From: an uncultured Opitutales bacterium
Lineage (GTDB): Bacteria; Verrucomicrobiota; Verrucomicrobiia; Opitutales; Intestinicryptomonadaceae
DNA: 23,905 nt
Assembly (NCBI GenBank): GCA_934660865.1
Contig: CAKUIA010000022.1
Coordinates: forward strand, 1 to 23,905
Direction: 5' to 3'
The notes below the pieces were generated by a model. The model saw nothing but the letters and a program-made list of their open reading frames with translations, did no database searches and had not been told where the DNA came from. How positions within the stretch are numbered: the first letter of the stretch is position 1; each line of letters begins with the position of its first letter. Positions 4,456 through 23,905 of the stretch are shown here, in pieces. Made by a program: the position numbers and the translations under genes.

Positions 4456-4458
4456 ATC

Positions 4459-5886: not shown

Positions 5887-5987
5887 ATATTCTTGCGCCT
5901 TTATTAGACTACATACCCGCAAATTCCACAAGATAAAAATAAATATGTTGAAAAGAGCGCAAATGACTGTAGGCTTTTTTCCCAACA

Positions 5988-8677: not shown

Positions 8678-9262
8678 ATGAAAAAGAATTTGCTGATAGT
8701 TTTAAGCGGCCCCGCAGGTAGCGGCAAAACAACGCTTTGCGCAAACACAATCAAGTGCGACCCCAAATTCGACAGGGTTATCACCGCCACTACGCGCGCT
8801 CCGAGAGCGGGCGAAGTAGACGGCAAAGACTACATATTCCTTAGCCGGGAGGAATTTTTAAACAAGCTGCAAAACGGCGAATTTTACGAACATGCAACGG
8901 TTCACGGCAGAATGTACGGCACGCTGAAAAGCTCCATACAAAAGGCCTTTGCAGACAACAAAGACCTATTTTTGGTAATAGACGTGCAAGGCGCAAAAAC
9001 GTGGCGCGAAATCGCAAAAAAAGACCCAATTATCGGCAACTCGCTGCTTAGCGTATTTATTATGCCCAAAAGCATAGACGAGCTTGTAAGCCGCCTGCAC
9101 AACCGCAATACCGACGACGAAGCCGAAATTGCATTGCGCATGAAAACCGCCCAAGAAGAGCTTAAATTTGCAAAAGACTTCGACAAAATTCTGCACTCGG
9201 GCACAAGGGAGGAAGACTTAAAATCCCTTTTGGAAATCATAGCCCAGGCAAGAAAGGGCTAA
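8678..9262 (+). CDS. gmk: Guanylate kinase
   Basis: I take the start at ATG 8678 (MKKNLLIVLSGPAGSGKTTL P-loop). Also contains TTRAPRAGEVDGKDYIF, YGT and VIDVQGA. Confidence 0.93.
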   Translation: MKKNLLIVLSGPAGSGKTTLCANTIKCDPKFDRVITATTRAPRAGEVDGKDYIFLSREEFLNKLQNGEFYEHATVHGRMYGTLKSSIQKAFADNKDLFLVIDVQGAKTWREIAKKDPIIGNSLLSVFIMPKSIDELVSRLHNRNTDDEAEIALRMKTAQEELKFAKDFDKILHSGTREEDLKSLLEIIAQARKG

Positions 9263-9528: not shown

Positions 9529-10971
9529 CTACAAATCTTTGCTTCTGTCGGAGGACAATCGATAGTTGCGCATAATGCGCGGCATTGCCTCTTTCATTTT
9601 CTTTACGTCCAAAATTATGGGCACTTCATAGTCGAAAACAAAGGTTACATAGCCGTCGTTAAGCGAATCTATTATGCGGGCAACGTCTTTTATGGATTTT
9701 ATTTTTTGGCCGTTAATTTCGTAGAGCCTGCTGCTTGCGTACGATTGGTATCCCAAATTTACCTCGTCGCCCAATACAACCGAAAGAACTACAACTTCGT
9801 CGTCGGGCGAATCCTTTTCCTCGTCGATAAGCCTGCTTAAATGTTCGGGCGGGTTTTGCTTTGTCCATTCCGACAAGTAGCTTAGCGAAAGAGTTGTAAA
9901 TACTAGGCCTCCTGCAACATACATTTTTGGAGTTTTGTCGTACATCATCGGCGAAACCATAAAATACGGCTTTTTGGGATACATTTTTACCTCCAACTTT
10001 TTGCCGTCGCGCAGAATGCCGAAATTTACAAATTCGCCCATTTGCTTTGAGTCTACAATGGTCGAAAAATGGCGGTTTTCGCCGTTGTCGGCCTTAATGT
10101 TGCCGTTGTTCATTATTGTTTTGCCGTCTATTGTAAGCAGAACATCGCCCTTCTTTACCGGAGGGTTTTCGCCAGCAAATTTGCGGACCCTGCACACCAA
10201 CACGCCGCTTTGGGTTTCGGACATCTTAAGGTATTTGCGCGTGTCGGGGTTTTCCAGCGTAATTATGCTAATGCCCAAGTCGCCGAAGCCGTCTACCTTG
10301 CCGTCTTGTATGTCTTTTAAAAAGTGGCGTATAACGTCGGTATGTATCATATAGCCGAGGCCTTGCCTGCCCTTGTAGCCCTGAAAGGCAATGCCCACAA
10401 CCTTGCCGTTATACAAAATCGGCCCGCCGCTGTTGCCGGGGTTTATTGCGGCGTCTAGCTGGGCAGCCAAAAAGCTGTCGAGCATGGAATGCGAATAGGC
10501 AACCGCCTCTATGCGCGAAATTATGCCCTGCGTAATGGAAAGCCCGTTGCCACCCAAGGGATAGCCAACCGCCAAAACCTGCGTTCTTACAGGCGGGGTT
10601 TCGCCTATCTCGAAAGGCTCTATGCCGTCGAAAAACCGCTTGTCGGGAACTTCCAAAATCGCCAAATCGCACTGGTGGTCTATTGCCACAACCCTGGCCG
10701 AAACGGGCGAACCGTTGTCTTTTTTGAGCACCGAAACGTATGTGCTATCCGACACATTGTGGGCGTTTGTCAGAATTCTGTTGCCCGAAATTACAACGCC
10801 AGAACCGCTGCCCCTGCTTTGCCCCTTGGTAAGCCACGGCAAAAAGAAATTTGGCTTGCACGAAACCGTCTGGATTTTCACCACCCCCGAAAACTGGTCT
10901 AAAGGCTGGGCAAATGCCCCCAAAGCCGAAGCCGAAATTAAAAGCGAAACTGCTATGTGTTTAATTTTCAT
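9529..10971 (-). CDS. Periplasmic trypsin-like serine protease, HtrA/DegP (S1C) family, with C-terminal PDZ-like region
   Basis: I take the start at ATG 10971 (MKIKHIAVSLLISASALGAFA/QP signal peptide). The catalytic triad context is TNAHNV, CDLAIL and GNSGGP. The C-terminal half looks PDZ-like (GDVLLTIDGKTI). Confidence 0.88.
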   Translation of the reverse strand: MKIKHIAVSLLISASALGAFAQPLDQFSGVVKIQTVSCKPNFFLPWLTKGQSRGSGSGVVISGNRILTNAHNVSDSTYVSVLKKDNGSPVSARVVAIDHQCDLAILEVPDKRFFDGIEPFEIGETPPVRTQVLAVGYPLGGNGLSITQGIISRIEAVAYSHSMLDSFLAAQLDAAINPGNSGGPILYNGKVVGIAFQGYKGRQGLGYMIHTDVIRHFLKDIQDGKVDGFGDLGISIITLENPDTRKYLKMSETQSGVLVCRVRKFAGENPPVKKGDVLLTIDGKTIMNNGNIKADNGENRHFSTIVDSKQMGEFVNFGILRDGKKLEVKMYPKKPYFMVSPMMYDKTPKMYVAGGLVFTTLSLSYLSEWTKQNPPEHLSRLIDEEKDSPDDEVVVLSVVLGDEVNLGYQSYASSRLYEINGQKIKSIKDVARIIDSLNDGYVTFVFDYEVPIILDVKKMKEAMPRIMRNYRLSSDRSKDL

Positions 10972-11078
10972 ATCGCGGCAAATTCTATTTTTATACAAAT
11001 GCGCTTGTAAACAAAATTTTTGGCAAAAAAGCGGCGGCCTTGGGCAAAAAATACCGCGGTTAAAACGCAAAAAAACAG

Positions 11079-11096
11079 TTGCTTTCAACAAAGCAA
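11079..11096 (+). promoter_or_regulatory. Perfect palindrome TTGCTTT-CAAC-AAAGCAA 20 nt upstream of leuD (possible operator or leader hairpin)
   Basis: 7-bp arms at 11079-11085 and 11090-11096, read directly from the sequence. The function is not established. Confidence 0.25.
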
Positions 11097-11116
11097 TCCT
11101 TAGCTTATATAACAAT

Positions 11117-11710
11117 ATGGCACTTGAAAAGATTGAAAAATTTGAAGGACAGGGAGTATACCTCCCCGAAAACGACATCGACACCGACAGAATTATTCCC
11201 GCAAGGTTTATGGTGTGCGTAACATTTGAAGGCCTCGGCAAATACGCCTTTTACGACGAACGCAAAAACGCCGACGGCACCGACAAAGACCACGTTTTAA
11301 ACAAGCCGGAATACAAAAACGCAAACATAATACTGTCGGGCGCAAACTTCGGCTGCGGCTCGTCCAGAGAGCACGCGCCCCAGTCGCTTTGGCACTACGG
11401 CTTCCGCGCAATAATAGCCGAAAGCTTCGCCGAAATCTTTTTCGGCAACGCCACAACTTTGGGCATTCCCTGCGTAACGGCCTCGCACGACGACATAAAA
11501 AAGATTGCCGACGAAGTTGTATCCAAGCCCGATTCCAAGATTTTGATAGACCTAAAGGCGAAGAAAATAAGCTGCAACGGCGTTTCGGTAGACTGCCAAA
11601 TGCCCGAAAACGCGCGCCAAGCCCTAATGACAGGAACGTGGGACCCAATCGCCGAGCTTATGGAAGCCGACACCGACAAAGTCTACAATTCGCTTTGCTA
11701 CACAAAATAG
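11117..11710 (+). CDS. leuD: 3-isopropylmalate dehydratase small subunit
   Basis: I take the start at ATG 11117 (MALEKIEKFEG...). Contains DIDTDRIIPARF, NFGCGSSREHAP and YGFRAIIAESFAEIFFGN, close to the E. coli LeuD motifs. Confidence 0.88.
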   Translation: MALEKIEKFEGQGVYLPENDIDTDRIIPARFMVCVTFEGLGKYAFYDERKNADGTDKDHVLNKPEYKNANIILSGANFGCGSSREHAPQSLWHYGFRAIIAESFAEIFFGNATTLGIPCVTASHDDIKKIADEVVSKPDSKILIDLKAKKISCNGVSVDCQMPENARQALMTGTWDPIAELMEADTDKVYNSLCYTK

Positions 11711-12729: not shown

Positions 12730-12749
12730 CCCGAAATTTCGGGATTTTT
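12730..12749 (+). terminator. Second palindrome CCCGAAATTTCGGG + ATTTTT (tandem terminator or operator)
   Basis: A perfect 14-nt palindrome at 12730-12743 is followed by ATTTTT. It shares the core CCGAAA..TTTCGG with the preceding hairpin. Confidence 0.4.
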
Positions 12750-12831
12750 GCGTTTATTGCGCAACGGGTTTAATTTTGCGAAATTATGGCGATATAGCTG
12801 TAGAACAAAATCAAAAAAAAGGAATAAGAGA

Positions 12832-13221
12832 ATGAAAAAATTGATTACACTTGCGGCTATGTTTGCCGCCACTTGTTTGTTTGCACAAGACAACGCCCAG
12901 CAAAACGCGCCGCAAAATGCGGGCAATGCCGCGGCAGCCCAACAGGCGCCAAGCGCCGACGACGGAGCCGTGGGCGTGATAGAAATTGTGGAAATAAGTT
13001 CGGTAGACACCTGCGGCTGCACAAAGTGCGACTCGTGCAAGGGAAAATTCTGCAAGTGCGACCAAAGCACACCGCAATGCGCAAAGTGCTGCAAGGCAAA
13101 AAAAGGCTGCAAAACCGCAAAGAATTGCGACAAAGCCAAAGCCTGCAAAACAAGCGCAAACTGCGACAGGGCAAAGAACTGCCCCGACGATTCGTGCCCG
13201 AAAACGCTAAAGAGCAAATAA
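12832..13221 (+). CDS. Exported small Cys/Lys-rich protein (metallothionein-like composition), function unknown
   Basis: The ATG at 12832 is preceded by AAGGA. The signal peptide is MKKLITLAAMFAATCLFA/QD, followed by a Q/N/A-rich linker. Residues 61-122 (13012-13197) contain 15 Cys in CxC, CxxC and CC patterns, including a repeated AKNCD[KR]AK unit. Residues 61-129 contain 17 Lys. The gene has its own flanking terminators. Confidence 0.7.
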   Translation: MKKLITLAAMFAATCLFAQDNAQQNAPQNAGNAAAAQQAPSADDGAVGVIEIVEISSVDTCGCTKCDSCKGKFCKCDQSTPQCAKCCKAKKGCKTAKNCDKAKACKTSANCDRAKNCPDDSCPKTLKSK

Positions 13222-14164: not shown

Positions 14165-16099
14165 CTACCTGCTTAATATCTGTTTTGCCAATTTTGCGAT
14201 TTCGTCGTTGGCTATGGTCGACATCGGGTAAATGTCTTTTGCGTTTATGTAGGCAAGCAAGGCCGCCCAGTTGTCGCCCGAGGCTTTCGCCTCGTTTGCC
14301 TTTGCAAGGGCGGCGGCAAACGACGAAGCTTTCACGGTTAAATCGGCTCTGATTTTGTTTAGCTGCATGTCTTCGGGAAACTGCATATAAACTTTCTCGA
14401 CAATCTCCCACGCGGCAAAATTGTTTTTCAATCTTGCAAGCTCCTTCGCCTGCCCTATCGAAGTTTCTATAATCTCCATGCGCTTCATTATTTCCAGAAA
14501 ATCTTTGTTGCGCGTTTGGTCGGCCGCCAAAGCCGCAGCAAACCTGAAGCGGTCGTTAAAAATGCCCCTGTAGTCTTTTTGGGCGAAAAGCCTGTCGAAA
14601 TCGGAAGTGGCAACGTCTTTTAAATCTACGCGGCCAATCATTGTCTTTAAGAACTCCTGAATTTTAGGGTTTGTGGGCCAAAAGCCAACAGCCTCCTGCA
14701 GCGCGCTTTCAACCGCGGCCTGGTTGCGCGTTTGCGCCGCAACAAGCGCCTTTTGCAGGGCCAAATCGCTAAGCTGGCGCGAAGTTTGTATGAAGGCCTC
14801 TATCTGCCCCGAATCGAAGTCTTTTGTGTAGCTTTGAATTTCCTTTAAAATTTCCGAAGCCCTTTCTACATGCTTTACTTTTACCGCGTTTACAAGTTTG
14901 TCGCAATCGCGCAAATAGCGCATAATTTCGCGCTTGGAATCCATCGGGAAAGTTTTTACGCACGCCAAGTTTTCGCCCACAAAAAACGCCTCGAGCATGC
15001 GCTGCGTTGCCGAGTGTATTTCGCCGCGCGAAATCAGGTATTGGGCTGCTTTCACGGCCTTGTCGGCGTCGTTTATGGCCTCTTTGCAAAGGGCGTCCAG
15101 CGTAGAGGTTGTAAGCTTTATGTCTACGCCTCCGAATACCTGCCCTTTAAGCGAATCTATGCCCTCTATTTTCCCGTCTTCGGCGGCAAAAAGGTAGCGG
15201 TAAAAATCGTTTGCAATCATTGCATGGTAGTACCTGCGCTGGAGGAAAAACTGCACGATAAGGCTTTGGAAATCCATCTTTTGGTTTATCCTAGACGACG
15301 CCTCGTATGATTTGTTTTCCTTTATTTTCGCCTCGGTTTCCTGAATGCGCTTTTTTATGGGGTCTATTTCGTAGTCTCTCGAAGGCGGCGGCGTTGCGTC
15401 TTTGCCGCGCATCATTGCGATAAATTCGCGCCTGTCCATGCTCGAAATCATGCGCATTCCCGACTCTTTTCTGCTTCTGTCCTGCTCGAGCTTTTCGTTT
15501 TGTATTGCAAGCTTTTCTATCTTTTTGGTGGTCTGCCAAAAGTTTACAACCTTGTCGGCAATGGTTCTGCAAAGCTGGTCGTCCATCGGGTATTCCTGGG
15601 CGTTGAACAACATTCGCCATGCGTCCAAAGTTCTTTCGGCATCGCTGCCGCCGCCCTTGCCCGCCAAACGCTGACTTATGTCGACTAAAAGCTGGTTGTA
15701 GGCCAAATCTTCGCTGGTGGTTGCCGGCGGCGAATTCAAATATTTTTCGAAACGCGCCCTTATAATTTTCTGTTGGGCGTCGTCTACCTTCTTGCCCGAA
15801 AAATCTACAAGGTTGCCCTGGTTTTGCAAAAGCGAAATGATTGCCGAATTGTCGCCGCCGCCAAAGCCGCCCAAATTTATCGGCAATGCCGAAATATTAT
15901 TGCCGTTTGCGGCGTTTGCCGCGCCTTTATCGGGCGCCGAATTTTGCGCGGGCAAGGCGCTGTTTGGGGTGCTGTTTTGCCCCGCTTTAGCGCCCGTCTG
16001 TTCGGGTGTTTGCGGCAGGTTTTGCGTGTTTTGCGCCGCCTGTTGTGCATACAGCCCGCAGGCTGCAAACATAAAAATGTAAAACAAATTTCTGTTCAT
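14165..16099 (-). CDS. Secreted 644-aa, largely alpha-helical protein of unknown function
   Basis: The signal peptide is MNRNLFYIFMFAACGLYA/QQ, followed by a ~60-aa Q/N/A/P-rich linker and a long helical region with a TPR-like C-terminus. The ATG lies 1 nt after the upstream stop (TAG-T-ATG). Confidence 0.65.
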   Translation of the reverse strand: MNRNLFYIFMFAACGLYAQQAAQNTQNLPQTPEQTGAKAGQNSTPNSALPAQNSAPDKGAANAANGNNISALPINLGGFGGGDNSAIISLLQNQGNLVDFSGKKVDDAQQKIIRARFEKYLNSPPATTSEDLAYNQLLVDISQRLAGKGGGSDAERTLDAWRMLFNAQEYPMDDQLCRTIADKVVNFWQTTKKIEKLAIQNEKLEQDRSRKESGMRMISSMDRREFIAMMRGKDATPPPSRDYEIDPIKKRIQETEAKIKENKSYEASSRINQKMDFQSLIVQFFLQRRYYHAMIANDFYRYLFAAEDGKIEGIDSLKGQVFGGVDIKLTTSTLDALCKEAINDADKAVKAAQYLISRGEIHSATQRMLEAFFVGENLACVKTFPMDSKREIMRYLRDCDKLVNAVKVKHVERASEILKEIQSYTKDFDSGQIEAFIQTSRQLSDLALQKALVAAQTRNQAAVESALQEAVGFWPTNPKIQEFLKTMIGRVDLKDVATSDFDRLFAQKDYRGIFNDRFRFAAALAADQTRNKDFLEIMKRMEIIETSIGQAKELARLKNNFAAWEIVEKVYMQFPEDMQLNKIRADLTVKASSFAAALAKANEAKASGDNWAALLAYINAKDIYPMSTIANDEIAKLAKQILSR

Positions 16100-16100
16100 A

Positions 16101-16484
16101 CTATATCTTTCTAAAAGCGGTCAGCAGCAATTTGCCGTCTTCGTCTATGCGCACGTTAAAATTATACCTTTGCCCCACCGACGGGTTAAAGCCTTCAAGC
16201 GTTGCGGGAACAAGCAGCGGCAAAGACTTGCCCGAATTTGTCTTTATCAAAATAATGCGCCCGACATTTTCGGAATATGCAAGCTGGCTGTCGACCAACG
16301 CCGAAATGGAATATTCGTTGCCCGCAAACGACTTGGGCAAATCGCAATATTGGGCTATGGGCAGCTTTGCGCCGTCTTGGGCCGAACCCCCCGAATTCGC
16401 GTTTTTATACAGAAAACCTGCCACTATAAGCACAGATGCTACGGGTATTGCGGCGGCTATGATAACTGAACGTTTGTCTTTCAT
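16101..16484 (-). CDS. 127-aa N-terminally membrane-anchored protein, unknown function
   Basis: MKDKRSVIIAAAIPVASVLIVAGFLY forms a single TM, followed by a ~95-aa beta-rich domain. The gene lies 11 nt downstream of the MauE-like gene. Confidence 0.6.
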   Translation of the reverse strand: MKDKRSVIIAAAIPVASVLIVAGFLYKNANSGGSAQDGAKLPIAQYCDLPKSFAGNEYSISALVDSQLAYSENVGRIILIKTNSGKSLPLLVPATLEGFNPSVGQRYNFNVRIDEDGKLLLTAFRKI

Positions 16485-16495
16485 AGAATAGTACT

Positions 16496-16918
16496 TTATG
16501 ATATAAATCTTTTATTGTTTAACAAGAATATAATTGCGCAGAATGCAATTAGCGCAAAATTCCTAAGCAGCGGCAGCATAAGCCCCGAATTTGAAGAGCC
16601 AAAACACCCGCACGAAATGTCTAAATTGCGCCACATTGCCGATATTATGGCTGCGATAAAAACAGCAAGCATTAAAGCCACCACAATAATCGCGCTTTTT
16701 GCATAATTTCGGCACAGCAAGGCTGCGGCGCACACAAGCTCTAAAGCGGGCAAAAAATATGCGACAATCAGCGCGGCGTTTTCCGGCAAAATTTTATAAT
16801 TTAAAATTGCCGTGTAAAATTCGGGCGGGTTTGCAAGCTTCAATGCACCGGCATACGCAAATACAACAGCCAAAATTATGCGCAAGGCTGTTTCGGTTAA
16901 TTTTTTGACGTTTTCCAT
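16496..16918 (-). CDS. MauE/DoxX-family redox-associated membrane protein
   Basis: I take the start at ATG 16918 (MENVKK...); the track start at 16927 is a TTG. There are four hydrophobic helices. AYAGALKL and the C-terminal ISCGCFG motif are typical of MauE-like proteins. Confidence 0.7.
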   Translation of the reverse strand: MENVKKLTETALRIILAVVFAYAGALKLANPPEFYTAILNYKILPENAALIVAYFLPALELVCAAALLCRNYAKSAIIVVALMLAVFIAAIISAMWRNLDISCGCFGSSNSGLMLPLLRNFALIAFCAIIFLLNNKRFIS

Positions 16919-17304
16919 TTTTGCCAATCGCCCTTAAGCACAAATACTTTTTTAATGTTAAATTCGTTTCTCAATTTGTCGGCAACCGCCCTGCCCGCGT
17001 TGCAGTCGTTTGCCGAGCAATACACCAAAACCGCGCAATCGGGTTGCCACAGTTCAAAAAAAGCGGCAAGGCTGTTTTCAAAATCTTCAGCCGGCAGGTT
17101 AACCGCATTTTCAATATGCCCCGTTTTGTAGTCTTTGCGGGAGCGCGCGTCTACAACAACAAGCCTTTCTTGTAAGTTTTCGACTTCGGCAAGCGTAATT
17201 TCGGCAACTTTTGCGGCAATGCGGTTATTGTTTAGCAAAAAATTTGCAAACGCCAAAAGTATGCTTAAAAGCAAAATAACGATTATGCCGTTAATTGTTT
17301 TCAT
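16897..17304 (-). CDS. Membrane-anchored rhodanese-like domain protein
   Basis: I take the start at ATG 17304 (MKTINGIIVILLLSILLAFA). Contains VVDARSRKDYKTGHIENAVNLP and LVYCSANDCNAGRAVADKL...LKGDWQKW, i.e. a rhodanese fold with a CxxxxC active-site loop. Confidence 0.75.
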   Translation of the reverse strand: MKTINGIIVILLLSILLAFANFLLNNNRIAAKVAEITLAEVENLQERLVVVDARSRKDYKTGHIENAVNLPAEDFENSLAAFFELWQPDCAVLVYCSANDCNAGRAVADKLRNEFNIKKVFVLKGDWQKWKTSKN

Positions 17305-18616
17305 ATGCACCCAAAAACAGGCTTGTCCAATTAGGGACATAGTCGCCCACGCCGCCAAGCATTATAACCGAAATGCCGGTGTTGTTTGCCGCAATTTCGC
17401 GCCATTTTTTGCGGTTGCGCCAATCCGAAAAAATGCCCAAATATACGCTTGCATTTTCAAGCCTTAAATTGGCACATTCTTCGCTTGCGGTCATATTTAA
17501 TATTATTTTCCTGTCGGCCGAAATTTGCGAAATTTCGTCTGCATTTTTAGCCCCGCAAATAATTGCGGTTTTAAAGTTGCCGCTTTGCAAAGTGTCGCAA
17601 ACAAGCACGGTAGTTTTATTGCGGCGGCAAAATTCGGCAAGCTCGCCGCCAAACCTTAGCCCCAAAGATTTTTCGTCGGGGGCAAAAAGCAGGTAGTCGG
17701 CCGTAGTGGAACTTCCGCAAAGAACCTTGCCGTTTTCGTAAAACTTAAGCTTATATTGGCGGGGCAATGCCAACGACACCGCACATATCGCCGAAAACCC
17801 CGCAACCGTCAACAGAACAACCGACAAATAAAAACGGCCGCACAAAAAACGGCGCCTGTTGCATATTATCGCCACAAAAAGCAGCGCAAGCGGTATTACC
17901 CACAAAACCCAATAGTTTGCAACATTGCTAAACGATGCGCACAACCCGAAACAAAGCCAGGTTGCAAAGGCGCTTAAGCTAGGCAAATTGCGCGAAAACG
18001 TAAAAGTTATGCACAAGGCAAAAGCCCAAAATGCCACATATGCAATTTTAAGGCACAAATTGTGCCCGCACATAAACTCTAAATGCGAATTTATAAGCGA
18101 AATATACTGCGCGCCGTCGTCGGGGTTTTGGTACCAGTTTGCGTATACTTGCGATGGAGATTTTTCTCCCGTTCCGTTCGGAATGTCGGTTATCATTTTT
18201 AAGCCCGACAAATATATGTCGGCCCTGCAGTTTGCCGACGAGCTTTGCAAAGTTGCCATATTCGACATTCTCAGGGAAAGCGTGCTGTTTAAATACATAA
18301 AAAACGCAACCGCAAAAGCCGCAAAAATGCAAAAAATGCGCAGCTTATTTCGCGTAAAACCGCAAAGGCAAAGAAACGCCGCCAACGAAATTGCCAGCGA
18401 AACAAATGCCCCGCGAGACTGCGTTTGCAATAAAAAGCCGAACAGAACAAGCGACGCAACAATGCAAACGTAAAAACCCATTTTCTTGAAAACCGCGGCA
18501 AAAACCCACAGCGCCAATATTGCACACGCGATAAACGCCGCCGTACGGTTTGCGCTGGAAATGCCGTAGCCAAACCAGTCCAATCTTTCGGGTACAATGT
18601 CGAGCAACAGATTCAT
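17291..18616 (-). CDS. O-antigen ligase (Wzy_C)-like polytopic membrane protein with an extra ~156-aa C-terminal soluble domain
   Basis: The start at ATG 18616 overlaps the upstream stop as ATGA. LLQTQSRGAFVSL and NGTGEKSPSQVY...LINSHLEFMCGHNL resemble the Wzy_C SRG and GxG...HN motifs. The C-terminal domain is encoded at 17294-17761. Confidence 0.6.
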   Translation of the reverse strand: MNLLLDIVPERLDWFGYGISSANRTAAFIACAILALWVFAAVFKKMGFYVCIVASLVLFGFLLQTQSRGAFVSLAISLAAFLCLCGFTRNKLRIFCIFAAFAVAFFMYLNSTLSLRMSNMATLQSSSANCRADIYLSGLKMITDIPNGTGEKSPSQVYANWYQNPDDGAQYISLINSHLEFMCGHNLCLKIAYVAFWAFALCITFTFSRNLPSLSAFATWLCFGLCASFSNVANYWVLWVIPLALLFVAIICNRRRFLCGRFYLSVVLLTVAGFSAICAVSLALPRQYKLKFYENGKVLCGSSTTADYLLFAPDEKSLGLRFGGELAEFCRRNKTTVLVCDTLQSGNFKTAIICGAKNADEISQISADRKIILNMTASEECANLRLENASVYLGIFSDWRNRKKWREIAANNTGISVIMLGGVGDYVPNWTSLFLGAYENN

Positions 18617-19680
18617 TTTTCTATTATTGTCCCCCAGGCTTTTGCAAGCGGTTTTGTTGGCAGCGCAACCATATATCTTCTGTCCGCAACGTTGCCCACC
18701 GCCGATTCTACGGGGTATGCAACCTGGTTTAAATAGTCGCCAATGTAAACGGGGTGGCGCAAAAGATAGAATTTGTCGACCGGCGGCGCAACCCAATTCG
18801 GATTGCTTGCATCGGGAATAAAATTTATCAGATACTTGAAAAATTCAAGCGAAAGATTGTTTATCTGCGAGTTCGTTGCATGCCCCAAATTTTCGCCCGC
18901 CTTAAAAATTACCGCGCAGTTTAAGTCTATCATTCTTTCGTAAAATCTTTTTGCCGACGTATAGCCATATTCAAGCTCGCCCGTAGTTACAAGCCACACA
19001 ATGCCCCTTGCGTTTGCATTGGGAATATCGTAGCTGGAGTTTACGTGAATGTGTATGCCCGAAAAATACTGCGGTTTGCGCATTGCCATTCTGTGCGCAA
19101 TTTGCGCCCCGCCGCTAAAGCCGTATAGCATAACCGCGTTTCTCGGAAGCATATATTTGCCCATTATGCGCTTAAAGCCCGTTTCCCACTCCGACAGCCT
19201 GTCGTTGAAGATAAAGTCGTAGTCTTTGGCCTGCTTTGCGTTCATTTCGTCGGTGCTTACCGACGGCGAATAGCCGCCGAAATTAGACCACGTAAGCATT
19301 GCCAAATTGTTTTCGTCGGCAAATTTTATAAGATGTTTGTAGTGACTTTCCGAATAGGTAAGGTTGTTTTTTAAATCGTTGGGCAGTTTGTTCCAAGTGC
19401 ATATTGCGATAACGCCCCTTACGCACGGTATCTTTGTTTTCTTTGCGTTTTCAAACTTTTCCTTTGTCCAAATCCGCGGCATGCGCACAACATAGGCTAT
19501 TTCCTCTAGTTTGTTGCGCTTTTTCCAGTTTTTTTGGGCAACCTGCGTTTTGGCGTCGGTGCGGTAAACACTCGTGAAAATCCTGTCGCTTTCAATCAAA
19601 TATTTTTCGGGCGCCTGCGTTTGCGAAAAGGCCGCAAATGGCAGGCACAGCAAAAAAATACGCAATAAAAACCCCGCCAT
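18613..19680 (-). CDS. Secreted alpha/beta-hydrolase (esterase), paralog 2
   Basis: The start at ATG 19680 is preceded by AGGAG and overlaps the upstream TAA by 1 nt (TAATG). The signal peptide is MAGFLLRIFLLCLPFAAFS/QT. The nucleophile elbow is LYGFSGGAQ, and the candidate catalytic His is in ENLGHATN. Confidence 0.7.
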   Translation of the reverse strand: MAGFLLRIFLLCLPFAAFSQTQAPEKYLIESDRIFTSVYRTDAKTQVAQKNWKKRNKLEEIAYVVRMPRIWTKEKFENAKKTKIPCVRGVIAICTWNKLPNDLKNNLTYSESHYKHLIKFADENNLAMLTWSNFGGYSPSVSTDEMNAKQAKDYDFIFNDRLSEWETGFKRIMGKYMLPRNAVMLYGFSGGAQIAHRMAMRKPQYFSGIHIHVNSSYDIPNANARGIVWLVTTGELEYGYTSAKRFYERMIDLNCAVIFKAGENLGHATNSQINNLSLEFFKYLINFIPDASNPNWVAPPVDKFYLLRHPVYIGDYLNQVAYPVESAVGNVADRRYMVALPTKPLAKAWGTIIEK

Positions 19681-20585
19681 TACCGCTCCTGAATTTTTCT
19701 CCAAGTTTCCGCCAAATTTTCGCTTCTAAACGGGCAATACATTTCCGATTGGTCGTTAAAAATCGACACATCTAAGTCGAAACTGGAAATGTCGCAATAA
19801 ATGTCCTTTTGCGGTTTTTTGTCGCCCCGCCAAATGGCAAGCTCTTCGTCGAAAAACTCGCGCACAAATTTTTCGAACTTTGCGCTTCGGTTGTGCCCCG
19901 TGTTGGAAATGCTTACCCATATCCACGGGCGCTTGTCTTTGCGGCCGCTGTAGTAATAGCCAAAAGTCGGCTGCCAGCGAAGCCCGTCTTTTTCGCCGCA
20001 GGCTACAATGCCGCGCGCATTTGTAAGCTTTGCGCCGCTTTTGGGGTAATCCCAAAACTGCGCCGAATACGCGCACCATGCCAAAATCCTGTCGGGACAC
20101 CAGTCTATAAACCTGCTTACAAAATGCGCCCCGCCCGAAAACCCGTAAAGCACAAGGGGCAAATCTTTGCCGTATACGCGTTTTACTTCGTCTAACAGAG
20201 CCTGCCCCGAGCCGTATTGCGGCCAGTAGTAGCCCGTTTTTGTTTCGTACAAATCTTCGGGGTTCGATTGGTAGTTTAATGCGATTATCCCCAAATTGTT
20301 TTTCTTGGCAAAATCAAGCCACGGGGTTTCTTTTGTAAAAAATTCGCCGTTTGTGTTCATGCCCGGTGCAAGCACCAAAACCGCCTTTGCGTTTTCGCAA
20401 ACTACATTGCTAAACAAAAATTTGCTGTTTGCAAAAAGGCTTATTTGGCAAAAACAAAAAGCTGCCAGCAGGCAAAATTTCGGCAAAAAACAAAACCTTT
20501 TAACTTTTCGGCAAATTATAGCTGAAAATTTCAACCCATAAACGCCCGAAAAATTTTTTATTTCATTAATACTACCGAACCTCAT
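19680..20585 (-). CDS. Alpha/beta-hydrolase (esterase), paralog 1; start codon uncertain
   Basis: LYGFSGGAHF, ARGIVACGEKDG and NTGHNRS parallel paralog 2. The track start at 20621 is the TTG of a TTGACA box. Candidate ATG starts are 20603 and 20585. A TTG at 20486 (AAAGG 9 nt upstream, and a perfect TATAAT on the minus strand at 20515-20520) would give a clean signal peptide MPKFCLLAAFCFCQISLFA/NS. Confidence 0.6.
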   Translation of the reverse strand: MRFGSINEIKNFSGVYGLKFSAIICRKVKRFCFLPKFCLLAAFCFCQISLFANSKFLFSNVVCENAKAVLVLAPGMNTNGEFFTKETPWLDFAKKNNLGIIALNYQSNPEDLYETKTGYYWPQYGSGQALLDEVKRVYGKDLPLVLYGFSGGAHFVSRFIDWCPDRILAWCAYSAQFWDYPKSGAKLTNARGIVACGEKDGLRWQPTFGYYYSGRKDKRPWIWVSISNTGHNRSAKFEKFVREFFDEELAIWRGDKKPQKDIYCDISSFDLDVSIFNDQSEMYCPFRSENLAETWRKIQER

Positions 20586-20616
20586 ACGCACTACAAAACA
20601 CATACCTACAAAAATT

Positions 20617-20642
20617 GTCAAGCGTTTTTAGTGATATTTTTA
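20617..20642 (-). promoter_or_regulatory. Promoter-region motif copy A: TAAAAATATCAC-N8-CTTGAC (minus-strand reading)
   Basis: On the + strand this reads GTCAAG (20617-20622) -N8- GTGATATTTTTA (20631-20642). A near-identical block with the same spacing lies at 22110-22135. I could not place a convincing -10 box after this copy. Confidence 0.35.
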
Positions 20643-20846
20643 ATATCTTACAAATTTATTTATAAGCCTGTTTGCTGTTAATATATTTTTGCAAAATTTT
20701 GTTTTATTACAAAAAGCAAAGCCTGCAAATACACCGCATACCCTTTTATGCAACAGCATATGCGGTAAATTTTTCAACCTACTTTAATGCTTTTTCAAGC
20801 TTTTTAGCCAGTTGCGACATTTGATAAACACCGTTTCTTTTTGGGT

Positions 20847-20969
20847 CTAATCGGTTTTAATTTTTACGGAATCTGCATTTGGCTGCTGCAAATTAAAAAA
20901 CACATCGCCAAACAAATTGCATAGCGGCAACACACAAAAAAAAGAAAATACAAGCAACGACTTTTTCAT
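20847..20969 (-). CDS. Candidate 40-aa exported peptide (below the ORF-track size cut-off)
   Basis: My hand translation of the minus strand gives ATG 20969...TAG 20847 = MKKSLLVFSFFCVLPLCNLFGDVFFNLQQPNADSVKIKTD. It has an MKK + hydrophobic signal-like N-terminus and starts 6 nt after the stop of the 360-aa gene (TAG-GGTAAA-ATG). Confidence 0.3.
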   Translation of the reverse strand: MKKSLLVFSFFCVLPLCNLFGDVFFNLQQPNADSVKIKTD

Positions 20970-20975
20970 TTTACC

Positions 20976-22058
20976 CTATTTAAAGAAAATTTTAGAATCT
21001 ATACCCATAATTTTTGCATTCTCGATAGCCGCAATTTGAATGGGATTAAATTTTACAAACTTATGTTCGATGTTTTTGCCGTCTTTATTAAAAACAATTC
21101 TAAGCGAATCGCTATTTTCCATAATTTCTTCTATCTTACGATAAGTTAGCGTTTTAAAATCAACGCCGTTAATTTTCAAAATTTCGGCATTTAATATGCC
21201 CGTTTTTGCATAATTTTCATATAAATATTTAGACCATTCTTTGTTTAATTCTATGCGGTTAAACAAAATTTCCATTCCGTAATAGCCCTTATTTTTTTCC
21301 GTTCTTAATTTGTAGGTTATGGGGTCAAAAAATTTATAGTTTGCAATGGATATACGCTTTTTGTTGAACGAGTTTTCCACTTTAAACTTAAAATTTAAGT
21401 TCGGAATATAAATTTGCAAATATTCAAGCATACCGTTTTTTGCCAAGCTTGCCTTAAGCGAATATTTACCGTCGGCAAAAATATCCACCTTTTTATCGGA
21501 AAGCAGCTGCGTTATGTCGGCTTTTACCGCTTTTTTCAGTTCTGCTACAACTGCAGAGTTTAGCATTGTACGGTTGTTGCGTTCCAATTCATCTAGAATA
21601 GACGAAATATTTTCTACACTTGGGTGCAAATAACGCTGCATATTTGGGTAAGCATTGTCTTTTGCAAATAGTCTTGAATATTCGTCGCTTCCCGAATTTT
21701 CATGAAATACCCCCGCTTTGGAATATATTTTGCGCACATTATATTTTTTTGGCATGGCGGCAGCATTAAATTCCACAACTTCCGTATTCTCAAGAACGAA
21801 GGCTTCGCCGGTATTTACGCTATAGCTTATGCTTTCCGCCCTCCGGTTATTTGAAAACGATACTTTAGTTTCCGCAAATTCTATTTTTTCATCGTTCAAA
21901 TCTTCGAAAAACCGCATAGATTTAACATCGTTTTTCAAAGACAAAAGCTCGGCAAACCCCAGCATTGAAAATTCGCCTGCATACATCGCCCCCGCGCCGA
22001 TTGCAAAGGCAAAAACCACAAGTTTTAGAGCAAACATTTTCGCAAAACCGAACTTCAT
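20976..22058 (-). CDS. Secreted 360-aa hypothetical protein with a possible C-terminal PDZ-like segment
   Basis: The ATG at 22058 is preceded by GAAAGGG. The signal-like N-terminus is MKFGFAKMFALKLVVFAFAIGAGAMYA. The C-terminal GILNAEILKINGVDFKTLTYRKIEEIMENSDSLRIVFNKDGK resembles a PDZ strand pattern. Coding sequence is AT-rich. Confidence 0.6.
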   Translation of the reverse strand: MKFGFAKMFALKLVVFAFAIGAGAMYAGEFSMLGFAELLSLKNDVKSMRFFEDLNDEKIEFAETKVSFSNNRRAESISYSVNTGEAFVLENTEVVEFNAAAMPKKYNVRKIYSKAGVFHENSGSDEYSRLFAKDNAYPNMQRYLHPSVENISSILDELERNNRTMLNSAVVAELKKAVKADITQLLSDKKVDIFADGKYSLKASLAKNGMLEYLQIYIPNLNFKFKVENSFNKKRISIANYKFFDPITYKLRTEKNKGYYGMEILFNRIELNKEWSKYLYENYAKTGILNAEILKINGVDFKTLTYRKIEEIMENSDSLRIVFNKDGKNIEHKFVKFNPIQIAAIENAKIMGIDSKIFFK

Positions 22059-22085
22059 AACACCCTTTCTTTTGTAACCGCAGGT

Positions 22086-22135
22086 AGAATAAGTTTTACG
22101 CCAAACACCGTCAAGTATTTTGTGTGATATTTTTA
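22086..22135 (-). promoter_or_regulatory. Sigma70-like promoter of the 360-aa gene, including motif copy B
   Basis: On the minus strand, TTGACG (22114-22109) is followed by a 17-nt spacer and TATTCT (22091-22086). Upstream lies TAAAAATATCAC (reverse complement of 22124-22135). The ATG is about 28 nt downstream of the -10 box. Confidence 0.5.
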
Positions 22136-22179
22136 TATTTGCATACTTTTAACAAATACAAATAGCGTTTTATATCCAT

Positions 22180-22218
22180 ATAATAAAAATGTCTTTTATC
22201 CATTAGACAAAAGACATT
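22180..22218 (-). terminator. Rho-independent terminator of the upstream island operon
   Basis: A perfect 10-bp inverted repeat AATGTCTTTT (22188-22197) / AAAAGACATT (22209-22218) has an 11-nt loop. On the minus strand it is followed by TTTATTAT. It lies about 57 nt after the stop at 22275. Confidence 0.5.
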
Positions 22219-22274
22219 ATGGCACATATTGTAAGTTGCCTATGTATGTTAAACTAAATTTTTGCGCAAAATCA

Positions 22275-22865
22275 TTAAGGAGAAGTGTACTGCAGGTTTT
22301 CGCTTGCTGGAATATAGCTTTTGGCAAGAGCAAGCCACTGTTCTAAAACTTCGCCTTCGAGAACGATTGGCTTTGAGTATACCGTCAATTTATTTGGATC
22401 TATGCCTCTAAATTTCACAAAATTGTCCAAACTAGCCGTTATTTTTATTGTTTTCACCTTTTTGGGTTTTGGATTTAAAATAACGTCTTTTATAACCTCC
22501 AAAAAACTTTCGACCAGCCCATAGACCAAATATTGGCTGTTTGGGCTATCGTTATACGAATATTCGGCGCCGCACATTATATATTTTGGCAGCCCGCACC
22601 CGCAAACTATCCCTCCTAAGTTTCCGTTTTCATCTACCACAATAGCATGAATTAATATATCCATGGAATTCACCGAAGCATTATTGAACGAAATTTCGCG
22701 CAAATCTTTGGATTTATCTATAAAAAGCTTAAACGGCGCACGCAATTTTGGTTCTACAACCAAGCGCATTTTAAAGTTGTCGGCAAAAAACTTTAAATCG
22801 TCTGCTGTGTCTGCCGCGGCATACAACCCCAATATAAAAGACATGCAAATTATAAGTTTTTTCAT
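22275..22865 (-). CDS. Secreted 196-aa hypothetical protein
   Basis: I take the start at ATG 22865 (MKKLIICMSFILGLYAAA/DT signal peptide), 1 nt after the upstream TGA (TGA-A-ATG). Contains a VCGCGLPKYIMCG Cys cluster. No family recognised. Confidence 0.6.
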   Translation of the reverse strand: MKKLIICMSFILGLYAAADTADDLKFFADNFKMRLVVEPKLRAPFKLFIDKSKDLREISFNNASVNSMDILIHAIVVDENGNLGGIVCGCGLPKYIMCGAEYSYNDSPNSQYLVYGLVESFLEVIKDVILNPKPKKVKTIKITASLDNFVKFRGIDPNKLTVYSKPIVLEGEVLEQWLALAKSYIPASENLQYTSP

Positions 22866-22866
22866 T

Positions 22867-23565
22867 TCACTTAAGGCACTTACCGTTGCAAGTTGCTTCA
22901 TGTTCCCAACCTCCGCATGCACATGTAATATATCCAGAAAACTGCACATCTTTCCCATGCAACCTATGGAACTCTTCTTGTTTTACATTGTGGCTCGCCT
23001 GAAATTTTTGCTTTAAATCAACCGCCTTTCTCTCAAAATTTCTCACGGCTTCGGACAGTGCGTTTTTATACGATGAACCGGTTTCTCGCACAACTAAATT
23101 TTTTGCATGCGTGTATAGAGATGTACCTACCACATCTTTATTCCATTGTTTAATAACATTGTAGTGTCCCTGTTCGTGTATTACAATTTCGCCATGCACC
23201 CGTTTCCATGTTGTTCTACAACCGCAACATTTTATTTCGCTTAAATTATATTCCACCCATTCTGGAATAATATATCTTTGAAATCTAACTTCAACTTTAA
23301 ACAAAGAAAGGTCTGTAGCACAAGCTACAAAACAAGAAGCATCGTCAATTCCGCTATCTACTATCTTATGTCTTATTACAATGTTTTTATTATCATCATA
23401 CGCAGTAAACCCGGCAAAATGACGTCCATCCTTATCAATTATTTTCCATGTAGGCATTCCCGGTTTTGGAATTTTATTGTAGTTTTCACCGTATATATTT
23501 TCTGCGTTCGAAATGCATGCGCCCAACATAACCATTAACGCAAAGAATATTTTAATTTTCTTCAT
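22867..23565 (-). CDS. Lipoprotein with an HExxH zinc-metallopeptidase motif (DUF922-like predicted secreted Zn protease, by recollection)
   Basis: I take the start at ATG 23565. The lipobox is MVMLGAC (Cys17). HEQGH is encoded at 23164-23178 (verified codon by codon). Cys clusters are CFVAC, CCGC and CAC...CNGKC. The late FHRLHGKD segment resembles the conserved C-terminal HG of DUF922 as I remember it. Confidence 0.6.
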   Translation of the reverse strand: MKKIKIFFALMVMLGACISNAENIYGENYNKIPKPGMPTWKIIDKDGRHFAGFTAYDDNKNIVIRHKIVDSGIDDASCFVACATDLSLFKVEVRFQRYIIPEWVEYNLSEIKCCGCRTTWKRVHGEIVIHEQGHYNVIKQWNKDVVGTSLYTHAKNLVVRETGSSYKNALSEAVRNFERKAVDLKQKFQASHNVKQEEFHRLHGKDVQFSGYITCACGGWEHEATCNGKCLK

Positions 23566-23905
23566 AATATGTTGCAATTCTGTTTTTATTTTTATCATAA
23601 ACTGTACGAAATATCCCCGCAACTGACGCTAATTTAGTTTTAACCACATACTTTCCATCGGCAAAAATAATTTTTTGCGTCAGCTCGCCATTGTATTCGT
23701 CTTTTTCAAAAATCTCTGTTTTGCCATCGGGCAAATGCTTCATTTCGTATATCGTTTCGTCGTTTAGAACAGTTTTTACTTTTTCAAACTTTTCGTTATA
23801 AAAAATCTCCCTTACATTCCCCTCCGAGTCGCTTTCTCTGATTAGGTCGCCGTTGGGGTTGTAAAACCTTGTTTTTACTGTTTTCCATTCGCTTGCACCA
23901 TACGC
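23552..23905 (-). CDS. C-terminal 117 aa of a beta-hairpin repeat protein (YD/MORN-like repeats); 5' part outside the window
   Basis: My hand translation shows the frame of the 63-aa track ORF stays open to the window edge: AYGASEWKTVKTRFYNPNGDLIRESDSEGNVREIFYNEKFEKVKTVLNDETIYEMKHLPDGK...RTVYDKNKNRIATYYEEN. Units such as FYNPNGDLI and VYDKNKNRI recur. It overlaps the next gene by 14 nt. Confidence 0.45.
   Translation of the reverse strand, partial: AYGASEWKTVKTRFYNPNGDLIRESDSEGNVREIFYNEKFEKVKTVLNDETIYEMKHLPDGKTEIFEKDEYNGELTQKIIFADGKYVVKTKLASVAGIFRTVYDKNKNRIATYYEEN

Follow-up and report, generated by a model that had tools for sequence, protein, structure and literature searches.

A coupled two-module gene cluster for predicted exported and membrane proteins in gut Opitutales, with a possible role at the cell envelope

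Seven consecutive minus-strand open reading frames (ORFs), all within positions 14165–20621 of a 23,905-nucleotide (nt) contig from a gut Opitutales bacterium (Verrucomicrobiota; contig CAKUIA010000022.1, assembly GCA_934660865.1; hereafter the window), form a tightly packed cluster whose products are predicted to be exported or membrane-bound. As judged from related genomes, the cluster is a mosaic of two modules, namely module A (genes G1–G5: two serine hydrolases, a Wzy_C-family membrane protein, a rhodanese, and a MauE-family membrane protein) and module B (G6–G7: a small membrane-anchored protein and a large secreted helical protein), which appear adjacent and coupled throughout the Opitutales. 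From the gene order, coupling, conservation, domain families, predicted folds, motifs, and predicted topology that are established here, and by analogy with known transport systems, we tentatively propose, at a level of confidence that stops short of calling it probable, that the two extracytoplasmic modules act together on the cell envelope as one transcription unit, by a mechanism of export, hand-off, and ligation. The cluster is a well-defined and testable lead, not a demonstrated new mechanism.

The genes are labeled in their minus-strand order, from G1 (20585 end) to G7 (14165 end). The cluster and its flanks comprise the following features:

20622–20975, minus strand: AT-rich non-coding gap 5′ of G1, a putative promoter region (354 nt, GC 0.31–0.39).
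19680–20585, minus strand: G1, predicted exported alpha/beta-hydrolase-type serine hydrolase, paralog 1 (GFSGGA nucleophile elbow; start uncertain).
18613–19680, minus strand: G2, predicted exported serine hydrolase, paralog 2, with a signal peptide (resemblance to G1 around the active site).
17291–18616, minus strand: G3, short Wzy_C/O-antigen-ligase-family membrane protein with seven to eight predicted transmembrane (TM) segments and a C-terminal domain of ~150 amino acids (aa) (PF04932).
16897–17304, minus strand: G4, N-terminally anchored rhodanese predicted to face the periplasm (PF00581, 1.6e-16, 61.1 bits vs. 22.2).
16496–16918, minus strand: G5, MauE/DoxX-family membrane protein with four predicted TM segments (PF07291, 5.5e-28, 98.3 bits vs. 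27; DoxX, 2.2e-5).
16101–16484, minus strand: G6, 127 aa, predicted single-pass inner-membrane anchor and periplasmic five-stranded oligonucleotide/oligosaccharide-binding (OB) fold (AlphaFold2 model, homolog profile).
14165–16099, minus strand: G7, 644 aa, predicted secreted all-alpha protein (signal peptide, AlphaFold2 model, homolog alignment).
14127–14110 and 14090–14075, minus strand: two tandem hairpin and T-run terminator-like sites 3′ of G7 (terminator scan, sequence reading).

Direct reading of the sequence shows that G1 and G2 overlap by 1 nt in TAATG at 19680, G2 and G3 by 4 nt in ATGA (18613–18616), G3 and G4 by 14 nt (17291–17304), and G4 and G5 by 22 nt (16897–16918), and that G5 is separated from G6 by 11 nt and G6 from G7 by 1 nt at 16100. 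The seven ORFs and all six junctions read exactly as the original prediction had described them, and its AT-rich region 5′ of the cluster and two hairpin and T-run sites 3′ of it are likewise recovered, as the non-coding gap and the two scan matches listed above. Because neighboring genes overlap or lie no more than 11 nt apart, the gene order is conserved, and terminator-like sites flank the cluster, a single operon has indirect support, and G1–G7 may constitute one transcription unit. Within the cluster, terminator-like matches occur at chance level (21 observed vs. 16.5 ± 4.7 expected from shuffled sequence). Both hairpins 3′ of G7 appear in the minimum free energy fold, in a stretch that as a whole is unexceptional (z = −1.5). 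The gap 5′ of G1 contains sigma-70-like matches at 20798–20769 and 20681–20653, each scoring only 9/12, and an Rfam search of it for a riboswitch or leader RNA gave no match. The presumed promoter gap also holds a 40-codon ORF, MKKSLLVFSFFCVLPLCNLFGDVFFNLQQPNADSVKIKTD (20847–20969, minus strand), whose start resembles a signal peptide and which lies 6 nt past the stop codon of a 360-aa gene. Hydropathy analysis finds a single N-terminal hydrophobic segment in each of G1, G2, G4, and G6, four segments in G5, seven to eight in G3, and a short signal-type h-region in G7; this favors an exported or membrane-bound state for each of the seven products, where originally most of them had been assigned to these compartments.

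The comparison on which the two modules are defined covers 114 related loci in total, and draws on 80 fetched genome loci that contain a G7 homolog with 10-kb flanks, searched by tblastn with the window proteins, and on a reciprocal metagenome scan with the G3 alignment. Scanning 185,579 species genomes with a pattern for G7 returned 430 loci, and all 80 that were fetched belong to Verrucomicrobiota or to unclassified metagenome-assembled genomes (MAGs); an exhaustive profile search yields 781 cluster representatives at E ≤ 1e-3. Named members of the G7 family are annotated as "hypothetical protein" or, once among ten further clusters, as "TPR repeat protein" (tetratricopeptide repeat, TPR), and the exact proteins of the window occur in metagenome assemblies only. 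Identity to G7 amounts to 64–92% among gut Opitutales MAGs, 45–50% in Cerasicoccus, Thalassobacterium, and Coraliomargaritaceae, and ~33% in Chthoniobacterales, Verrucomicrobiales, and Methylacidiphilaceae. At least 23 independent loci within the 64–92% range preserve the complete G1–G7 order, and the G2–G7 order persists in Cerasicoccus and other marine Opitutales genomes or MAGs down to ~45–50%; in these more distant Opitutales, G1 sits at another position and additional genes have been inserted. On this recurrence of gene order, the arrangement is not due to chance. The pairing of G6 and G7 is wider still, with G6 directly 5′ of the G7 homolog in 65 of the 80 loci across the phylum, and independent gene calls place 1-nt and 4-nt overlaps at the G6–G7 junction in relatives.

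The neighborhood of the 644-aa and 127-aa proteins, proposed as a check on the cluster, is thus conserved within the Opitutales. The idea of one dedicated seven-gene system survives in part: the genes are co-conserved in that order, but they fall into two separable modules, and in relatives they belong to a larger cluster that adds a DUF1573 protein, a 520-aa family, and an ATP-binding cassette (ABC) gene, reaching 12 genes in Cerasicoccus (locus L011) and 13 genes in locus L007. None of the ABC, DUF1573, 520-aa, 322-aa, 327-aa, and 229-aa genes of L007 is present in the window.

Clustering of neighbors over the 80 loci identifies this ABC gene as the third recurrent component. It encodes a fused ABC ATPase and ABC-2 permease of 550–600 aa (Pfam ABC_tran and ABC2_membrane), whose best NCBIfam match, below cutoff, is the White/ABCG-type "pigment precursor permease." It is found on the same strand in 32 of the 80 loci: upstream of G6, mostly directly, in 26, just past G7 in 4, and at the end of the extended cluster in the remaining 2, at the head in L011 (Cerasicoccus) and at the tail in L007. 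Further loci arrange the parts as ABC–G4–G5–G6–G7 (L019), G4–G5–G6–G7–ABC (L024), G2–x–G3–G6–G7 (L021), and G2–G3–G4–G5–G6–G7 followed by three small ORFs and then ABC–G6′–G7′ (L015), where the G6′ reading frame opens right after the ABC stop codon. As far as gene order can tell, these mixed arrangements bring parts of modules A and B together repeatedly. The second pair of L015 (12805–16951) is divergent, with ~30% identity to all other G7 sequences, and its presence indicates that the G6–G7 pair was duplicated in at least one Opitutales lineage. In several Chthoniobacterales loci (L025, L027, L033, L046, L062, L069, L075, L076), a divergently oriented AsmA/YhdP-like gene (weak Pfam match) and a gene for a 175-aa protein directly precede ABC–G6–G7; by its family resemblance, the former is a further neighbor of envelope-lipid-transport type.

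The same comparison brings out the best-surviving alternative to joint action on the envelope, in which two functionally independent envelope modules are neighbors and co-transcribed in the Opitutales with no common substrate, G1–G5 being a redox, hydrolase, and Wzy_C unit of its own and G6–G7 an accessory pair of an ABC exporter. Each module does occur alone. Outside the Opitutales, G6–G7 is found without G1–G5 in most of the phylum, for example behind a PHO4 transporter gene in L081; conversely, L106–L111 carry G2–G3–G4–G5 without G6–G7 (a hidden Markov model search of these contigs found neither gene), and in L107 a lysyl-tRNA synthetase gene follows. Identity also decays unevenly along the cluster, as G4 and G5 are 60–63% identical to those of the sister MAG L001, versus 92% for G7. 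However, the overlapping or near-abutting adjacency of the modules persists across Opitutales families down to ~45–50% G7 identity, and subsets of them recombine, with rhodanese–MauE placed directly between or beside ABC and G6–G7 in L019 and L024 and G2/G3 immediately before G6–G7 in L021, a pattern that gene-order inertia alone explains poorly. We regard independence of the two modules as unlikely.

Joint action, as proposed below, would give the two module B proteins, which match no Pfam family, a part in a hand-off at the membrane. G6 matches nothing in Pfam or among PDB sequences, and the G6 and G7 profiles reach a best E of just 0.26–0.33 against the PDB. A single-sequence search retrieved 3 matches only, and a profile was then built from locus translations, with which 1115 proteins are found. 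These homologs share a basic N-terminus, one TM helix, and a domain of ~90 residues, in which G55, N56, Y58, G75, R76, G104, Q105, G117, and K126 are invariant and in which the alignment contains no conserved His, Cys, or Met. The AlphaFold2 model (pLDDT 79.8 overall, >90 in the beta domain) consists of a helix at residues 4–31 followed by five strands, and Foldseek aligns it with OB folds, the matches among periplasmic proteins being CcmE (1lm0, root-mean-square deviation 2.4 Å over 75 columns; 8ce8_E, CcmE within CcmABCDE) and CusF/SilB. Membership in the CcmE or CusF families was considered and rejected, there being no PF03100 or other Pfam match at E ≤ 0.1 and no conserved His, Met, or Cys; the chain also stops at the last strand, and no C-terminal tail with a heme-binding His or Tyr follows. 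On its predicted structure, G6 thus has the build of CcmE without belonging to its family.

G7 likewise has no match in Pfam, TPR families included, or among PDB sequences, and two of its homologs carry precomputed PF13428 (TPR) assignments. Its model (mean pLDDT 75.9) places a disordered linker of ~60 aa, rich in Q/S/T/P/A, after the signal peptide (pLDDT <50 at residues 19–84), then a long coiled-coil hairpin formed by helices 174–230 and 242–286, and then a TPR-like solenoid. Foldseek against the PDB retrieves only generic TPR solenoids, with high probability but E ≥ 8e-3 and TM-scores of 0.1–0.2. G7 is therefore predicted to be a helical scaffold without an enzyme fold. Because the family holds 52 invariant residues in family-specific motifs, including RFE(K)YL, QFFxQRRxxH, FYR, DFD, WPxNP, and AWE, the alignment argues for a specific binding role rather than mere spacing. 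Two other identities were discarded: a lipoprotein, suggested by a FAAC motif before the cleavage site, since homologs do not retain this Cys and end instead in a motif of the A-Q cleavage type, and a phage protein, suggested by one homolog labeled "Caudoviricetes," since none of 50,697 phage records matches. The structural check proposed for the two proteins of unassigned family thus yields an OB fold and a TPR-like fold, neither of which points to a known, unrelated pathway.

The redox pair of module A adds conserved thiols to this picture. The best NCBIfam matches of G4, both below cutoff, are rhodanese_LYCAU and rhoda_near_glyco. It has one TM segment (residues 6–24) and a VYCxxxxC(N/G)(S/A)S loop that is kept in 13 of 15 homologs, the first Cys in all 15 and the second in 13. 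One rhodanese without the second Cys is that of L001, the closest relative (8752–9204, YCKTSSANDG). In G5, for which TTG 16927 is an alternative start, an SCGCFG motif between helices 3 and 4 is invariant in all homologs aligned; from the predicted topology, we infer that this motif and the G4 loop face the periplasm. The DUF1573 protein found just 5′ of G1 in relatives (L007 4715–5356, L011 948–1652, and others) has a conserved T-S-C-G-C-T that calls to mind the MauE motif SCGCFG. A selenocysteine (UGC) variant of this DUF1573 family has been listed (PMC9312934), which suggests that the T-S-C-G-C-T motif may be redox-active. In L106 (3869–5212) and L107 (4929–6272), MauE is fused in frame, via an extra hydrophobic segment, to a hydrolase of the G1/G2 type (GGFSSGAH); this fusion, confined to one lineage, independently links the redox protein to the hydrolase family. 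The placement of rhodanese–MauE next to a WaaL-type protein in turn links thiol/sulfur redox chemistry to the Wzy_C family, a combination that, to our knowledge, is undescribed in known glycan pathways.

An OB protein that resembles CcmE, together with conserved thiols, also invites comparison with periplasmic maturation of proteins or cofactors, as in cytochrome c System I or the Mau system: the ABC protein would deliver a cofactor, G6 would chaperone it as CcmE does, G7 would hold the apoprotein as CcmI does, and the rhodanese, MauE, and DUF1573 proteins would maintain thiols. The parallel in components is striking, encompassing the superposition of G6 on both CcmE structures, an ABC-2-type exporter, a TPR-like periplasmic protein, and the conserved CxC/CxxxxC redox trio, and the MauE family takes its name from a part in the maturation of methylamine dehydrogenase. 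Nevertheless, G6 lacks both a match to Pfam CcmE and any conserved tail of His, Cys, Met, or Tyr able to hold heme or metal, no CcmC/CcmF-like or target apoprotein gene lies nearby, and no mauA, mauB, or mauD adjoins mauE in the window or the related loci. A maturation machine would also leave the Wzy_C protein and the hydrolases without a role, and the family occurs in gut anaerobes and aerobic soil lineages alike. We judge this alternative improbable.

G3 scores 42.7 bits against PF04932 (cutoff 31.7, E 6.2e-11) over residues 54–161, corresponding to model positions 2–115 of 149, and a distant homolog in L107 scores just 26 bits. R11, S67-R68-G69, R116, R131, Y162-Q163, and N176-S177-H178-L179 are invariant, as are P313, G319, N374, W399, W405, P428, and W430 in the C-terminal domain. 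A 76-residue loop (111–186) between hydrophobic segments holds the invariant R116, R131, and H178. Because the basic loops (KK, RNK, SRN, RRRxxxxR) follow a positive-inside pattern, we infer that this loop and the C-terminal domain of ~150 residues are periplasmic, together with an N-terminal ERLDWFGYG motif. No relative of G3 is found among PDB sequences. WaaL itself has about 10–12 TM helices and a large periplasmic loop with essential Arg and His residues, and the Wzy_C family also includes the PglL/PilO O-oligosaccharyltransferases.

With 30% BLASTP identity over 124 aa (E 8e-7), the hydrolases G1 and G2 are distantly related paralogs that have LYGFSGGA in common, and a repeat scan of the cluster returns their active-site coding stretch (19098–19133 and 20120–20155) as its sole repeat. 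Both carry a GFSGG (GxSxG-type) elbow with a conserved acid and His, the Ser/acid/His residues being S150/D200/H231 in G1 (alignment of 13 homologs) and S189/E237/H267 in G2 (17 homologs), with each position conserved in at least 90%. Start candidates for G1 are TTG 20486, TTG 20534, and ATG 20585, and the homolog alignment opens at 20531. G2 is the best-conserved member of module A, with 44–88% identity in relatives. The two esterase paralogs originally named are thus borne out as distant paralogs with conserved catalytic residues, but the term "esterase" is a fold-level call, because neither reaches a Pfam threshold; no Pfam or NCBIfam cutoff is attained, the best scores, both from G2, being 14.7 bits vs. 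23 for Abhydrolase_2 and 19.8 vs. 150 for PHA depolymerase, and G1 matches no Pfam model. Among PDB sequences, there is a weak match to the poly(aspartate) hydrolase PahZ1 (E 0.0047 for G1; range 0.005–0.36 over G1/G2).

With G3 as a PglL/PilO-type oligosaccharyltransferase, the cluster might alternatively carry out protein O-glycosylation, of the G7 linker or of other exported proteins, and the hydrolases would edit the glycan. Such a scheme could draw on the known breadth of the Wzy_C family, on the low-complexity, disordered Q/S/T/P/A-rich segment behind the G7 signal peptide, and on the conserved, predicted periplasmic C-terminal domain of G3, which could bind an acceptor. Yet the G7 linker is equally present in lineages without an adjacent Wzy_C gene, the cluster contains no glycan-synthesis genes, nothing sets G3 apart from WaaL/Wzy-like functions, and the ABC association would go unexplained, so that we consider O-glycosylation quite improbable, more so than a maturation machine. 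Least probable by our estimate, and very much so, is an ordinary operon of WaaL, the lipopolysaccharide (LPS) O-antigen ligase, and some accessory genes: the above-threshold Wzy_C match, a weak match to the NCBIfam RfaL model, and the relatives' ABC-2 exporter, which recalls the Wzm/Wzt-dependent O-antigen route, are set against an RfaL score of 20.4 bits vs. a cutoff of 277 (NF012031), seven to eight TM segments rather than 12 plus an extra C-terminal domain, a fused ABCG-like half-transporter as the ABC component, no core, O-antigen, Wzm/Wzt, or glycosyltransferase genes nearby, and the presence of rhodanese, MauE, OB, and TPR proteins, which we know from no described LPS pathway.

Joint action of the two modules on the cell envelope, the reading that we tentatively prefer, could proceed as follows. 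Module B would normally partner an ABCG-like half-transporter, which would here be encoded elsewhere, and this ABC exporter would extract or flip an amphipathic envelope component. The anchored OB domain of G6 would receive the polar (glycan or anionic) head of the cargo at the membrane surface, and G7 would scaffold or bridge the periplasmic hand-off. Module A would be an Opitutales-centered add-on, in which G3 transfers or ligates the exported moiety, G1 and G2 trim or transacylate it, and G4 (CxxxxC) and G5 (CGC), with DUF1573 (CGC) in relatives, serve as a quinone-linked thiol/sulfane redox relay. By analogy, this hand-off logic would follow that of Ccm, Lpt, Mla, and Lol, each of which pairs an ABC transporter with a small beta domain on a membrane anchor and with a partner in the periplasm. 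What this scheme postulates is physical contact among G6, G7, and ABC, the nature of the cargo, each of the catalytic steps, and transcription as one unit. A bolder version, which we hold to be doubtful, is that G6, G7, and the ABCG-like half-transporter make up an undescribed trans-periplasmic export/hand-off machine, confined to Verrucomicrobiota as sampled, to which the Opitutales add a WaaL-like transferase, a thiol relay, and hydrolases, amounting to a new pathway for an envelope glycoconjugate or lipid.

Several observations weigh against such a mechanism, beginning with the separate occurrence of each module described above. The ABC gene is not in the window (tblastn gave nothing better than E 0.5), nor does it lie within 10 kb in most gut relatives. 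Genes for a glycosyltransferase, flippase, lipid-carrier enzyme, or acceptor synthesis are missing from every version of the cluster, and no LPS or glycan-synthesis genes are found in the window or in the relatives' clusters. The Wzy_C match spans only part of the model, and G3 has fewer TM segments than WaaL; G6 has no recognizable ligand site apart from its conserved polar and aromatic residues; and the global confidence of the G7 model is just moderate (pTM 0.51). On balance, cell-surface assembly or remodeling, as the original prediction had proposed, is still the most reasonable reading, held back by the missing glycosyltransferase and lipid-carrier enzymes and by the non-enzymatic folds of G6 and G7. 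The accompanying statement that the gene set fits no recognized pathway stands, as no component points to a known, unrelated one, and a literature search returned nothing relevant on this gene combination.

The remainder of the window holds further observations. Its 20600–23905 segment has a low GC content (0.31–0.38 vs. ~0.47 elsewhere) and encodes three same-strand orphan exported proteins at 20976–22058 (360 aa), 22275–22958, and 22867–23622 (lipobox-like LGAC, weak DUF922 match). This segment is common only to the window and the sister MAG L001, takes the position of the DUF1573 and 520-aa genes of relatives, and may have been acquired as an island or represent a variable "cargo" region. 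At 12748–13221 on the plus strand, directly after ExbB/ExbD, lies a gene whose secreted 157-aa product is extremely rich in Cys and Lys in its C-terminal half (CGCTKCDSCKGKFCKCDQ...CKTSANCDRAKNCPDDSC), matches nothing in Pfam, and is conserved at 93% in L001. An HtrA/DegP-like gene (9529–11241, minus strand) overlaps a plus-strand ORF (10622–11710) by ~620 nt; because the Aconitase_C (LeuD-like) domain of the latter starts only near 11130, its 5′ part is probably non-coding. Finally, two adjacent genes in 3208–6018 on the minus strand, 3 nt apart, encode an uncharacterized pair made up of a 415-aa GTPase (MMR_HSR1/DUF3482-like) and a 519-aa DUF2868 protein.

Verrucomicrobiota are abundant in the gut, in soil, and in the sea, and their envelope biogenesis is largely inferred from Proteobacteria. 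In this setting, the G6 and G7 families are sizeable (1115 proteins and 781 representatives, respectively), have no Pfam model or solved relative and, the one TPR label of G7 aside, no name beyond "hypothetical protein," are conserved across the orders of the phylum that were sampled, and are genetically tied to an ABC exporter. The outcome is a three-part module (G6, G7, and ABC) that is open to testing, with Cerasicoccus and Thalassobacterium as culturable hosts, and a documented, recurrent hydrolase–Wzy_C–rhodanese–MauE block that includes a MauE–hydrolase fusion. Should the cluster indeed function in envelope assembly, it would add a lineage-specific machine and a possible target or marker for gut Opitutales.

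Individual components have parallels in described systems, none of which they fully match. G3, above the Pfam gathering cutoff, resembles WaaL, Wzy, and PglL in a loop whose invariant R116, R131, and H178 recall the Arg/His loop of WaaL; it differs in its seven to eight TM segments, partial model coverage, and extra conserved C-terminal domain, in an RfaL equivalog score far under cutoff, and in the absence of LPS or glycan-synthesis genes nearby. In the relatives Cerasicoccus and L007, an ABC-2 permease exporter and a Wzy_C protein share one cluster, as in Wzm/Wzt–WaaL, but there the ATPase and permease are fused, neither a carbohydrate-binding Wzt domain nor glycosyltransferases or a polyprenyl-phosphate transferase are found, and the exporter is not in the window. 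Mycobacterium tuberculosis possesses a DoxX–SseA(–SodA) membrane oxidoreductase complex, which, like MauE/MauD, joins a DoxX/MauE membrane protein to a rhodanese or thiol-redox partner on the same membrane side; here, the rhodanese is instead anchored and carries CxxxxC, SodA, MauD, and mauAB are missing, and the cluster includes Wzy_C and hydrolase genes. G7 resembles CpoB (YbgF) and other periplasmic coiled-coil and TPR scaffolds in pairing TPR-like repeats with an extended coiled coil, but is about twice as large, has family-specific motifs and an N-terminal disordered linker, and shows neither Tol-Pal context nor detectable homology.

For module B as a whole, the closest parallels are ABC-centered. 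CcmABCD–CcmE similarly couples an ABC-2-type exporter genetically to a TM-anchored periplasmic OB protein, within a system that includes TPR and thiol-redox proteins; it differs in that G6 has neither PF03100 nor the heme His/Tyr, CcmC, CcmD, and CcmF are absent, the ABC component is a fused ABCG-like half-transporter, and G7, with its coiled-coil hairpin, greatly exceeds CcmI in size. LptB2FG–LptC, MlaFEDB, and LolCDE share with module B and its ABC partner the combination, encoded together, of an inner-membrane ABC transporter, a single-pass small periplasmic beta domain, and a soluble periplasmic partner; the OB fold of G6 is distinct from the beta-jellyroll of LptC and the MCE domain of MlaD, with no homology detected. 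Set beside Lpt, Lol, Mla, and Ccm, the proposed G6–G7–ABC machine would be a counterpart made of unrelated folds.

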